A DNA stretch of 64,000 nt from contig JBBSWH010000001.1 in the NCBI GenBank assembly GCA_038046385.1, positions 1 through 64,000 on the forward strand. Direction: 5' to 3'. This document shows, in pieces, positions 11,573 through 46,737 of this stretch. Within the stretch, counting starts at the first letter, position 1; every line of letters begins with the position of its first letter. The position numbers and the translations under genes were made by a program. The notes under the pieces were generated by a model. That model was given only the letters and a program-made list of their open reading frames with translations, was not told where the DNA came from and ran no database searches. This stretch comes from Nanobdellota archaeon (lineage in GTDB: Archaea > Nanobdellota > Nanobdellia > Woesearchaeales > GW2011-AR4).

Positions 11573-13372
11573 TTGCAGGTTGCACATAATTTTGGAGAAG
11601 AAGAAGTAAGCTCAAACACGAATGAGAATGCAAGCTTCATGCTTACCAACGGCAACGGAAGCTACTGCAATCTTGCGTGCATTCCATCTTCAAGATACCA
11701 GGGAGTTTCCTTTTTTGACAAAAACGAAAACAGGATGTTTAAGTTCATAGAAAACCTTGAAGTCAAGGGCAACAATTACATAAATTTAATCAGAAACCTG
11801 TTTTATTCTGTAGAACGTAAAAAAGGAACTCTCCTTGAAAAATTCTTCATGCCGAAAGAGCATAATTCAGTGATATACGAGCTGGATGCAGAAAGGCAGG
11901 TCGATATCATAATGGACTGCAGGGAATCATATTCCAACAAAGACTGGGGAAGATTTTATGAAATATTCCAGCAGGACGGATGCGCTGTTGTAAAGTTCAC
12001 GAAAAGGACAGACAGGAATGAAGATGCAACTGACGGCTATGAAGAGTACACTCTTTACATGGCTATAAAGTCAGACAACCCGAACTGCGAGGAAAATTGC
12101 AGATGGGTTGAAAGAAGATATGTTGATGATGAAAAACGCAATTCTAACCCATTCAGGAGGCATGTGTACAATGCTTTGAGGATGGAAGGGTCCAAGTTCG
12201 TATTTTCAATGGCAAGGAGCATGAAAGGCGCGATAGACGAATGCAATAAAGTGTTTGAAAATGCTGAAGGGCTTAAGAACAAAGAAAAAGAAAGATTTTT
12301 TTCTTTGATGAATTCAAAGCAAATATCAAAGGTAATCAAAAGCAAGAAAATTCCTTCTGAAACAAAAGCAGCTTACTTAAATTGCGCAAATTCATTAGGC
12401 AATCTTTCTGTTGATTCAAATGTGTTTGCAGGCCTTCCCTGGTTTTTTCAGTTTTGGACAAGGGATTCGATGATTTCGCTTAAGGCTTTGTCTATCATTG
12501 ACAAGGGTGCTGCTGAAAGCACACTTGGTGCGCATTTAAGCAAGGTCATGGACAATGGAAGACTGCCAAATATTATCGGGCAGAATGGCTTTGGCAATGC
12601 TGATGCTGTTGGATGGATGTTCCTGAGAAACGATATTGGAAACAAAGAGAAAATTGTCTCAGCTGCAGAAAAATCTCTTAATGGGCTGTTAAAGTACTAC
12701 ACAAAAGACAGCTTTGCTTACAATTACGCAAAAGAAACATGGATGGATACGGACTTTGCAAATGACTCAAGAGAAGGGATGAGGATAGAGATGCAGGCAT
12801 TGAGATTGGGATTTTACAAGATGATGCATGAGCTTACGAGTGATGCAAAGTATAAGATTCTTGAAAACCTGCTTAAGGCTAAAGTAAAAGAAAAGTTTTG
12901 GAACGGAAAAGTTTTGGCAGACGGTTTGGGTGATTTTACAGTAAGACCTAATTCATTCATTGCTGCTTATGCGTATCCGGAATTGTTGCCTAAAGATGAA
13001 TGGATGGTTTGTTTTGAAAATTCCCTTAATTCACTTTGGCTTGAATGGGGTGGATTATCAACAATAGACAAAAGCCATTATCTTTTTACAAATTCCCATA
13101 CGGGCGAAGACAGAAAGAGCTATCACAGGGGCGATTCATGGTTCTGGATAAATAATTTGGCTGCGCTTGTTCTTGCAAGAGCTGATAAGGCAAAGTTTAA
13201 GGACAAAATAAATCAAATTATGAAGGCAAGCAAAGAAGAAATATTATGGAAAGGGTGCATAGGATGCCATTCTGAGCTAAGCTCTGCCAAAGAATTGAAA
13301 TCAGAAGGATGCTATAATCAGGCGTGGAGCAACGCGATGTATATGGAGATGGTTGATGAGTTGTATGGATGA
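11573..13372 (+). CDS. Amylo-alpha-1,6-glucosidase (glycogen debranching enzyme)
   Basis: LTNGNGSY, AGLPWFFQFWTRD, TWMDT, RPN, YHRGDSW, QAWS. Confidence 0.88.
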   Translation: MQVAHNFGEEEVSSNTNENASFMLTNGNGSYCNLACIPSSRYQGVSFFDKNENRMFKFIENLEVKGNNYINLIRNLFYSVERKKGTLLEKFFMPKEHNSVIYELDAERQVDIIMDCRESYSNKDWGRFYEIFQQDGCAVVKFTKRTDRNEDATDGYEEYTLYMAIKSDNPNCEENCRWVERRYVDDEKRNSNPFRRHVYNALRMEGSKFVFSMARSMKGAIDECNKVFENAEGLKNKEKERFFSLMNSKQISKVIKSKKIPSETKAAYLNCANSLGNLSVDSNVFAGLPWFFQFWTRDSMISLKALSIIDKGAAESTLGAHLSKVMDNGRLPNIIGQNGFGNADAVGWMFLRNDIGNKEKIVSAAEKSLNGLLKYYTKDSFAYNYAKETWMDTDFANDSREGMRIEMQALRLGFYKMMHELTSDAKYKILENLLKAKVKEKFWNGKVLADGLGDFTVRPNSFIAAYAYPELLPKDEWMVCFENSLNSLWLEWGGLSTIDKSHYLFTNSHTGEDRKSYHRGDSWFWINNLAALVLARADKAKFKDKINQIMKASKEEILWKGCIGCHSELSSAKELKSEGCYNQAWSNAMYMEMVDELYG

Positions 13373-13495
13373 ATTGCGAAGCAATTCAGCTGTATTCGCC
13401 GATAAATGCATTGCATTTTCGGTCGTGCTCGCAAATCATTGATTTGCGACATTTGGTCAAGCTTTTTGCGAACGCAAAAAAGGTTGGGCGGGATC
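13373..13495. repeat. Mosaic hairpin cluster (GCGAAGC minihairpin, degenerate family D copy, family C copy)
   Basis: aattgcGAAgcaatt; tcgcaaatc..gatttgcgaca; tttggtcaagcttttt..aaaaggttg. Flanked by a duplicated gene 3' end. Confidence 0.7.
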
Positions 13496-13548
13496 AACGC
13501 TATGTTTATGGAGATGATTGAGGAAATATATTTATGATTCTAAGCCAG

Positions 13549-25224: not shown

Positions 25225-25359
25225 TCAGTGATGGCTGTGATTTTCTTCTTTGGAATGTTTTTTTGCCTTTTCCAAATCTATTTCGCAGAAGTGGCAGTAA
25301 AGTTCGTCATCTGACAAAGAACGCCGGCAGTTTGGGCATATTGCAACGTCGTGGCTCAT
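25225..25359 (-). CDS. Small zinc-ribbon protein (44 aa)
   Basis: Manually translated MSHDVAICPNCRRSLSDDELYCHFCE...HSHH, directly after the DUF655 gene. Confidence 0.6.
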   Translation of the reverse strand: MSHDVAICPNCRRSLSDDELYCHFCEIDLEKAKKHSKEENHSHH

Positions 25360-25369
25360 TTTCAAAAAA

Positions 25370-25942
25370 TCATGCATCTACAAACAATTTGTGCTTCTCG
25401 TTTCCTTCAAGCTCCAGGAGTATTCTTTTTATGATTGCTTTCTCCGGATCCGGCATCAGTTTTACCCTGTTCTTAAGGTCTGCAAAGCTCTCAAAAGGCT
25501 TTTCATCCCTTGACTCTATGATTTGCCACATATGCTTTTTTCCAAGCCCGGGAAGAAGCTCCAGCTGGTGCATTCTTGTGCTTAGCGGCCTGGCGCTGTT
25601 GAAAAAATCTATGAATTTCTTTTCGTTCTTTTGGATTACATCCTTTATCACAAAATCAAGCTCTGACTTTGCGGTTGAAGATAATTTAGAGGTTCCCATC
25701 TTGCCGACTATGTGGTGGATTTTGTCTCTTTTTCCTTCTCCTATGTACACTTCTTCAAATGGCTGAAGATGAATTCCTTTTTTAGGAACAAGCTCCAGAA
25801 GCACGAAATGCTCTTTTCCCATGGCCTGGGCTATCGGTGTTTTCATGTACAGCGGCCTTTCATCATGGGAATAGCCGTTTGGCAGAAAATCCAGCACTAT
25901 TGCCGTTTCTTCTCTTGTCCTTTCCTGTTTTTCCGGTTCCAT
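25370..25942 (-). CDS. DUF655 family nucleic-acid-binding protein
   Basis: VLDFLPNG, YIGEGKRDK, RMHQLELLPGLGKK; conserved rpl21e-rpoF-DUF655 order. Confidence 0.92.
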   Translation of the reverse strand: MEPEKQERTREETAIVLDFLPNGYSHDERPLYMKTPIAQAMGKEHFVLLELVPKKGIHLQPFEEVYIGEGKRDKIHHIVGKMGTSKLSSTAKSELDFVIKDVIQKNEKKFIDFFNSARPLSTRMHQLELLPGLGKKHMWQIIESRDEKPFESFADLKNRVKLMPDPEKAIIKRILLELEGNEKHKLFVDA

Positions 25943-35447: not shown

Positions 35448-35594
35448 TGGACTCGTCGGGATTTGAACCCGAAGTCTCCGCCTTGCGAAGGCGACGTCAT
35501 CTTCCGCAACTTGTCTGTTGGCTTGAGCAAAGCGAAACCCACGCTTTTGGTCAAGCTTTTCGCAAAAGGTTGTGCCGGATTAGACCACGAGCCC
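35448..35594 (-). tRNA. tRNA-Ala(CGC) with 73-nt D-loop intron (35501-35573)
   Basis: GGGCTCG/CGAGTCC acceptor stem with G3:U70; TCGCC-TTCGCAA-GGCGG; BHB helix TCCG/CGGA with bulges GCA and AGA. Confidence 0.9.
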
Positions 35595-35630: not shown

Positions 35631-35722
35631 ATCGCAAATTGCAGTAATTAGTTTAAAAAACAAATGCAATTTGCGAGATAGACAATTACGTGTAAACATA
35701 ATTAATCAACGCAATTGTCTAT
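35631..35722 (+). repeat. Family B double-hairpin element
   Basis: cgcaaattgca..tgcaatttgcg ag atagacaatt..aattgtctat. Confidence 0.7.
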
Positions 35723-41516: not shown

Positions 41517-41586
41517 AATTCTGTTCGCTTCGCTCACAATAGTTAGTGCTCGGGTTTCGCTCGATGCCAGTCGCTCAACCCTCGCT
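41517..41586 (-). repeat. Family A hairpin element
   Basis: Minus strand: gcgag ggtt..aacc cgag then ttgtgagcGAAgcgaacag. Confidence 0.7.
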
Positions 41587-41619: not shown

Positions 41620-41650
41620 ATGATAATGAATGGGCCTGACAGATGTGAAC
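41620..41650 (-). repeat. Degenerate duplicate of the tRNA-Val 3' end plus flank
   Basis: atgataatgaatgggcctgac-agatgtgaac versus 41711-41742. Confidence 0.75.
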
Positions 41651-41721
41651 CAACCCTTTTGTGAGTTGACGACAAATATCATGTGCCATTTTTAATGGCA
41701 CGACCCGAATATGATAATGAA

Positions 41722-41835
41722 TGGGCCTGACCAGATTTGAACTGGTGGCCTTCACCGTGTCGAGGTGACGTCATTTGCCGCCCGCAAACTCAGCAAATGC
41801 TTAATTTGCGCGGTACCGGACTAGACCACAGGCCC
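41722..41835 (-). tRNA. tRNA-Val(GAC) with 40-nt D-loop intron (41775-41814)
   Basis: GGGCCTG/CAGGCCC acceptor stem; TCACC-TCGACAC-GGTGA; relaxed BHB at the same position as in tRNA-Ala. Confidence 0.9.
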
Positions 41836-46701: not shown

Positions 46702-46737
46702 CAACCTTTTCTTATATAAGAAAAGCTTGACCAAAAG
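46702..46737 (+). repeat. Family C hairpin element
   Basis: caacctttt..aaaagcttgaccaaaag; same motif as 13452-13486 and the tRNA-Ala intron. Confidence 0.75.

Follow-up and report, generated by a model that had tools for sequence, protein, structure and literature searches.

The tRNA-Ala(CGC) gene of a tiny groundwater archaeon (genome G000, 1.28 Mb, 85% complete) is interrupted in its D-loop by a 73-nt intron that carries hairpins also dispersed elsewhere in the genome, and the locus raises the question of where such an intron comes from. In the Thermoproteales, families of bulge-helix-bulge (BHB) introns were transposed between tRNAs (Fujishima et al. 2010, as related in the available portions of PMC4090602 and PMC10714607); spread of these introns after speciation is implied there, and a DNA-level process of unknown mechanism is suggested in review (same sources, in part). 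For Caldiarchaeum subterraneum, a mobile-element model of tRNA gene disruption has been built on a 1.8-kb recombinase element (Sugahara et al. 2012, PMC3293823, in the excerpt available). For Asgard tRNAs, a 2026 preprint examined copying from one tRNA to another, mobile elements and reverse transcription as possible sources, and the accessible part of its text gives no general intron route. Outside the supplements of Fujishima et al. 2010 and of the Asgard preprint, a literature search on such introns returned intron transposition between tRNAs only, and no element family described both as a BHB intron and as a duplication-flanked insertion.

Described here is one sequence family found in two states, as a putatively spliceable intron at several tRNA positions and as an ordinary insertion, flanked by target duplications, whose site is empty in some relatives. 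Together with the long, short and absent forms found at a single tRNA site within one genus, it offers a concrete lead on the birth of archaeal tRNA introns, and makes that question testable by sequence data and simple biochemistry. The window referred to throughout is the whole 64,000-nucleotide stretch of DNA analyzed, and coordinates are window positions unless a contig is named.

The tRNA-Ala(CGC) gene and its predicted splice motif

The gene and the parts of its intron are as follows.

35448-35594 (-), tRNA-Ala(CGC) gene; 5' exon 35574-35594 (21 nt), 3' exon 35448-35500 (53 nt)
35501-35573 (-), D-loop intron, 73 nt, comprising hairpin 1, module 2 and the 3' adaptor
35544-35572 (-), hairpin 1 (family C): CAACCTTTT, GCG loop, AAAAGCTTGACC, AAAAG, with a C-C mismatch in the stem
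35520-35540 (-), module 2: GGGTTTCGC-TTT-GCTCAAGCC, related to the family A core and to module 2 of other copies
35501-35510 (-), 3' splice adaptor: GTTG, CGGA, then AG as bulge bases, as read from the sequence

When positions 35501-35573 were cut out by script, the remaining 74 nt were read by ARAGORN as a tRNA-Ala(cgc) cloverleaf with anticodon CGC and a G3:U70 pair, which bears out the D-loop intron proposed in the preliminary description of this DNA. The intron site lies between tRNA positions 20 and 21, or 21 and 22. Run without introns, ARAGORN called no tRNA in the window, and with introns enabled it miscalled the tRNA-Ala gene; Rfam at the gathering score reported three other tRNAs in the window and gave for this gene only a partial match of 27.2 bits over its 3' part (35448-35516).

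As read from the sequence, exon TCCG (35576-35579) pairs with intron CGGA to give a 4-bp central helix, and two bulges of 3 nt each (GCA and AGA) lie one after TCCG and one after CGGA. CAAC at the start of the intron pairs with GTTG directly upstream of CGGA as an inner helix, and the outer helix is the D stem of the tRNA. The exon-intron borders in this way form a helix-bulge-helix-bulge-helix splice motif, at which splicing is predicted. The 19-nt tail of the intron pairs with the element start and with exon bases and supplies the 3' half of the motif, and its last 10 nt are identical in the orthologous introns of three related genomes (G051, G007 and G050). In intron copies generally, (C)AACC pairs with GGTT(G), which is followed by 4 exon-complementary nt (e.g. 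at loci L007, L048, L053, L082 and L090). A scripted BHB search recovered the tRNA-Ala closure, yet it closed 18 of 72 copies against 10 of 72 decoys and discriminates poorly. Readings of the hairpin as a K-turn and as a self-contained BHB were ruled out by hand inspection of its letters.

Both splicing enzymes are encoded in G000: EndA as a single-unit ORF of 200 aa (one PF01974 match, 97.5 bits), and RtcB (536 bits). Single-unit EndAs of DPANN archaea with an extra (L3-type) loop have been linked to broad specificity and to heavily disrupted tRNA genes (2018; PMC5829648, in the available part of the article).

A hand check for direct repeats at the tRNA-Ala splice sites gave nothing convincing, and four DNA runs containing the same strain, searched as contigs, showed the intron intact and no intron-less tRNA-Ala joint; since contigs drop rare variants, this weighs neither way. 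No RNA run was found to contain the strain. Immediately upstream of the gene, at 35633-35675, stands a long inverted repeat, CGCAAATTGCA...TGCAATTTGCG.

Hairpin families in the window and the genome

Along the intron the order is CAACCTTTT, a variable stem-loop, AAAAGCTTGACCAAAAG and the second module. The family C pattern AACCTTT-N(4-34)-AAAGCTTGACC has three matches in the window against 0.00 expected (100 shuffles), and the earlier claim that the intron and two other window copies share this hairpin with the same internal mismatch is thus confirmed. These copies, and the other repeats and genes compared with them, are listed below.

13455-13485 (-), family C copy behind the stop codon of a GDE_C glucosidase gene (11573-13372)
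35549-35571 (-), family C copy in the tRNA-Ala intron
46703-46732 (+), family C copy with a longer tail, beside a relic tRNA-Leu 3' end
41552-41581 (+), core of a family A copy, having both 9-nt halves in common with intron module 2
41722-41835 (-), tRNA-Val(GAC); its D-loop intron of 39 nt (41775-41813) occupies the site used in tRNA-Ala and contains a CGCAAA...TTTGCG stem
41645-41710 (-), 66-nt insert behind tRNA-Val, containing a hairpin like that of family C, decayed and in antisense to the tRNA

With up to one mismatch allowed per half, family C has 11 copies in the 1.28-Mb genome, and C stands opposite C in every stem. The copy behind the glucosidase gene is bracketed by diverged duplications of the gene's 3' end (13325-13372 and 13490-13537), and the insert behind tRNA-Val is flanked by two copies, of about 25 nt, of the tRNA-Val end and trailer, beginning in the T loop. 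At C2:15651-15722 a tRNA-like locus undetected by the finders matches the 5' exon and D-loop intron of tRNA-Val(GAC) at 89% identity along 72 nt; it is probably a second Val tRNA gene, a paralogue that shares the intron.

The reported match of the intron to the inner stem of family A likewise held, both 9-nt halves being shared with four family A copies in the genome. The family A-type pattern GGGTTTCGC...GCTCAA[GC]CC has six matches genome-wide, namely these four copies, the tRNA-Ala intron and, on contig C4, the paralogue of that intron; of eight occurrences of the 9-mer GGGTTTCGC by itself, six have the second half after them. Family B (CGCAAA-N-TTTGCG) is over-represented as a class, with five occurrences in the window, the tRNA-Val intron (41783-41810) included, against 0.32 expected; the likeness drawn between that intron and family B extends to a 6-bp stem only, and is the weakest of the links.

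Hairpin and module 2 stand together again at C4:37556-37608, with 50 identical bases out of 53 (94%, E 7e-17), and the same unit recurs in other genomes. The intron had been described as a mosaic of the dispersed repeats. Its C and A-like parts are present as described, but because the same two-module unit stands on C4 they were not put together in place: the tRNA-Ala intron is one copy of a composite two-module element plus a splice adaptor, not a local mosaic of three families. Among the 23 tRNA loci of G000 with any non-self blastn match, only the introns of tRNA-Ala and of a tRNA on contig C3 match dispersed copies.

Distribution in related genomes and association with tRNA genes

The hairpin pattern was found at 73 places in 22 of 41 related genomes, these being G000, 20 of the 24 genus relatives and, from another family, G037 alone, while the reversed pattern, run as a control, had no match in the 41. 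Together with the shuffles, this places the matches far beyond chance both genome-wide and genus-wide. The apical part of the hairpin takes 46 distinct sequences among 72 copies, and 38 of these 46 variants stay paired up to a terminal loop no longer than 6 nt, where shuffled middles do so in 7.4 cases on average (maximum 11). The base of the hairpin, including the C-C mismatch, is thus fixed, and the apex is constrained only to pair.

Association with tRNA genes was scored by a strict enclosure rule (7-bp G+C-rich acceptor pairing, U8 and a T arm), under which a tRNA gene surrounds 19 of 72 hairpins but only 6 of 3000 random G000 positions, several of these 6 being real tRNAs. A lenient form of the rule was dropped (476 false positives in 3000). 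By eye, about 29 hairpins lie within tRNA introns. In many different tRNAs, with introns in the D-loop, at 37/38 or in the T-loop, the hairpin adjoins the 5' splice site, and in at least three cases an antisense hairpin stands at the 3' splice site. The enrichment supports the earlier suggestion that tRNA introns are havens for, or products of, these mini-elements, which occur outside tRNAs as well. Interruption by the family accounts for the failure of standard tRNA finders to recover many genes in these genomes. Rfam with an E-value threshold, applied to 60 loci, gave nine tRNA matches only, missed most non-canonical introns and was not used for the census; brute-force splicing followed by ARAGORN was rejected as too permissive, since it gives two readings for the C3 tRNA.

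Both orientations of the hairpin occur: it is antisense in the G000 tRNA at C3:26316-26440, and G024 and G011 have it in sense, at 37/38 of their Thr(CGU) genes. Two identities fit the C3 tRNA, Thr(CGU) if its intron is placed at 37/38 and Phe(GAA) if it is placed at 32/33; the Thr reading is favored, by its likeness to the G024 and G011 genes and by a U73 discriminator, presumably a Thr trait.

Four Ser-type tRNAs (L082, L084, L076 and L079, in G023, G010, G009 and G011, respectively) apparently have two introns in the T arm, one of them headed by a family C hairpin in sense or antisense. A near-identical subfamily with apex TTCTTCACAAGAA (L006, L010, L043, L047, L051, L058, L064 and L066, in several genomes) stands on the strand opposite to various genes, 2-10 nt before their start codons, its end AAAAAGGTT preceding the ATG; no clear duplication was found at these loci.

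Copies outside tRNA introns

In G000 the copies outside introns lie at gene ends, between direct target duplications of the following lengths.

Start of an spt5-like gene, about 30 nt
Start of the L37e gene, 19 nt
3' ends of two tRNAs, 18 and 26 nt
3' end of an ahcY-like gene, 12-16 nt
3' end of the glucosidase gene, diverged, about 35-50 nt

A local-alignment test across genomes detected duplications at 10 of 40 non-intron copies (18, 18, 24, 25, 26, 27, 29, 33, 51 and 55 nt) and no clear duplication at the other 30; around intron copies the same test gave 2 of 29, both spurious and due to unrelated similarity. In the clear cases the truncated copy of the target adjoins the hairpin and the intact gene lies at the opposite end of the element. 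The element measures about 57-150 nt and has no ORF.

Empty sites were found at two of these positions. Of 11 relatives compared at the spt5 start, six are empty and four are filled as in G000, with the same duplication of about 30 nt, and G020 has an element there at a different point; the G000-type fillings carry three kinds of cargo module. At the ahcY end, nine of 10 relatives are empty and one (G017) is filled as in G000. Since the same element stands outside tRNAs with duplications and empty sites, it is an insertion element and not merely a conserved intron motif.

At L068 (G003:C16:10944-11871) the element and a target segment of 44-55 nt are repeated in tandem, in at least two units with a run of N between them, an arrangement that suggests amplification through recombination between duplications.

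The tRNA-Ala site in relatives

The intron is not invariant among relatives, in which absent or shorter forms had been proposed as a point of comparison. The orthologous D-loop intron of tRNA-Ala(CGC) is 73 nt long in G000, 80 nt in G051 and 28 nt in G007 and G050, and is absent from G020 and G052; the 28-nt form keeps the 5' arm of the element and the 3' adaptor. G051, G007, G050 and G052 are close kin, with 94-97% amino acid identity in the Lhr helicase, and G000 and G020 are each about 80% identical to this clade in the same protein. Because long, short and absent forms all occur within the 94-97% clade, the site has undergone large changes among close relatives. The comparison was made without a rooted tree, and gain and loss both fit it; a long form first, followed by deletion, needs fewer events, the distant G000 having the long form too. 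The T-loop intron of the same tRNA in G050 resembles the short intron found in related genomes, lengthened on both sides by a family C hairpin in antisense, and because of this case entry of the element into existing introns probably happens too.

Sequence similarity among the copies follows a different partition. The core of the G000 intron is 95% identical to the D-loop intron of a different tRNA in G019; the value is 93% for the tRNA-Glu 37/38 intron of G008, 91% for the C4 copy and only 75% for G051, whose intron is the orthologous one. Between a T-loop intron of G008 and a G023 copy flanked by duplications, identity is 94%. Core similarity tracks the element subfamily, not the locus. The genomes compared (G000, G020 and the G051 clade) are about 20-30% divergent in conserved proteins, and because identity ignores locus at this level of divergence, the comparison indicates that copies have apparently moved or been converted recently, from one genome to another as well as between introns and other sites.

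Origin of the intron

The tRNA-Ala intron is probably a copy of a small, gene-less mobile element, widespread in this genus of Woesearchaeota, that survives as an intron in tRNA loops. The element would consist of an invariant hairpin base (CAACCTTTT / AAAAGCTTGACC, with the C-C mismatch) and a variable paired apex, followed by one of a few interchangeable modules, and would insert at the DNA level in either orientation. Most insertions would survive only at gene ends, where a long target duplication, of 18-51 nt, leaves an intact gene on the 3' side of the element. Insertions in tRNA loops would survive as introns, (C)AACC pairing with GGTT(G) and the 4 bases that come after it with the end of the exon; the resulting helix-bulge-helix-bulge-helix would be cut by host EndA and the exons sealed by RtcB. 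The intron could later decay by internal deletion, as in the 28-nt form, or be lost. A counterpoint is that the 3' tail of intron copies, made up of GGTT and 4 exon-complementary bases, is missing from duplication-flanked copies. Our guess is that the 4 bases came about through selection among many insertions or through pairing-guided choice of target.

A wider reading, put forward tentatively and given slightly less than an even chance, is that the hairpin-led family is a class of archaeal mobile DNA not described before, one that gives rise to introns spliced by proteins, a single insertion process yielding a long duplication at gene ends or a ready-made BHB in tRNA loops, and that the short anonymous introns of archaeal tRNAs are its decayed remains. 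If true, it would supply an arrival route for archaeal tRNA introns, a question that the 2026 Asgard preprint, in its accessible part, still treats as open.

Other origins were weighed against that of a mobile element surviving as an intron. An older short D-loop intron, comparable to the 28-nt form, could have been entered by a 45-52-nt piece of the element and the addition rendered harmless by splicing, as the existence of short forms in close kin of the long-form G051 (94-97% Lhr identity), the extended T-loop intron of G050 and an imperfect 9-10-nt direct repeat (AAAA.GTTG-like) flanking the extra segment in G051 and G000 would lead one to expect. The short form, however, already has the element's own 5' arm, CAACCTTTT; hairpin and tail move elsewhere as a single unit; the hairpin stands at the splice junction and not at random intron positions; and the long form in distant G000 makes a long-first order more parsimonious. 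Entry into an older intron is accordingly held to be unlikely at this site, and the element would itself have made the intron.

Still less probable is that the hairpin is a functional RNA module, a protein-binding or folding motif aiding processing, whose copies are akin by function and not by mobility. Target duplications and empty sites speak of insertion, the hairpin can run sense or antisense to the host RNA, and near-identical copies stand at unrelated loci in different genomes, all of which sits poorly with such a role, as does the lack of any Rfam family match for the hairpin; these outweigh an identical hairpin base across genomes whose proteins are only 70-82% identical, the compensatory changes in the apical stem and the position of several copies 2-12 nt from start codons, each of which a functional module would explain. 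Chance likeness among AT-rich palindromes, which a genome of 38% G+C with many short hairpins might bring to mind, is given practically no weight, being refuted by the controls (shuffled expectation of 0.00, no reversed match in 41 genomes) and by the E-value of 7e-17 for the 53-nt match.

Mobilizing enzymes and known element classes

No RVT_1, Cas1 (PF01867) or DDE_Tnp_1 was found in G000, which is 85% complete, and no transposase, integrase or reverse transcriptase found could be tied to the element. Y1_Tnp is present in only 13 of 24 genus relatives and does not co-occur with the hairpin, G037 having the hairpin and no Y1_Tnp. The single Y1_Tnp-like gene of G000 (C10:41826-42305, L124 1423-1902, 159 aa) is set tightly between other genes, has no flanking hairpins and may be domesticated.

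MITEs are short, non-coding, multi-copy insertions, and long, variable duplications are made by the IS1634/IS1549 group (IS4 family). The present elements are MITE-like in being short, non-coding, multi-copy and flanked by direct target duplications. They depart from MITEs, whose terminal inverted repeats match those of a parent transposon and whose target duplication has a set length, in their ends, the duplication-flanked copies having no 3' partner for the 5' end and CAACC...GGTTG end pairing being confined to intron forms, and in a duplication that is not of fixed length (18-55 nt), in a genome where no DDE_Tnp_1 was found. Derivatives of IS200/IS605 (PATEs), REP/RAYT and integron attC are mobile DNA recognized as single-strand hairpins, and they make no target duplication. 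By analogy the present hairpin would resemble them in its imperfect palindrome, conserved base, unpaired position, apex free in sequence but paired, and use of either orientation; the duplications seen here, and a Y1_Tnp restricted to 13 of 24 relatives and without a flanking hairpin, set it apart from IS200/IS605 and REP/RAYT. Casposons have a Cas1 integrase, terminal inverted repeats and a 14-15-bp duplication, unlike the present family with its variable duplication length and no PF01867 found in G000. Partial tRNA copies also recall an integrase element at a tRNA (attL/attR), but here only 57-150 nt without an ORF lie between them, and protein-gene ends are duplicated by this element too.

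Among systems that bear on introns, the transposing tRNA introns of Thermoproteales are alike in having closely similar introns across tRNA species and positions (cores 93-95% here). The present family differs in standing also at protein-gene ends and behind tRNAs, with long duplications and empty sites, in being defined by a conserved hairpin base and in occurring in both orientations. The Caldiarchaeum subterraneum case, as far as the available excerpt describes it, is similar in linking intron gain and scattered tRNA fragments to integration (PMC3293823). That element is 1.8 kb long and encodes a recombinase (PMC3293823), whereas those described here are about 57-150 nt and encode nothing, and the partial tRNA copies here flank the mini-element itself. 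Eukaryotic introners provide a parallel in which transposable insertions persist since host splicing removes them (PMC11282704, in the part available); these are spliceosomal, whereas the process proposed here would use EndA and RtcB on a BHB, in tRNA hosts and in a prokaryotic lineage.

The rtcB gene of G000, which lies outside the window on contig C19, has an interruption of its own of about 31 nt (approximately 25343-25373, minus strand), which folds as a BHB and follows ...PDGHWG. Across 14 genus loci, G000 included, the insert is carried by eight, with compensatory stem changes, and the other six are intron-free and read HWGYGFP without interruption; G011 has both forms.
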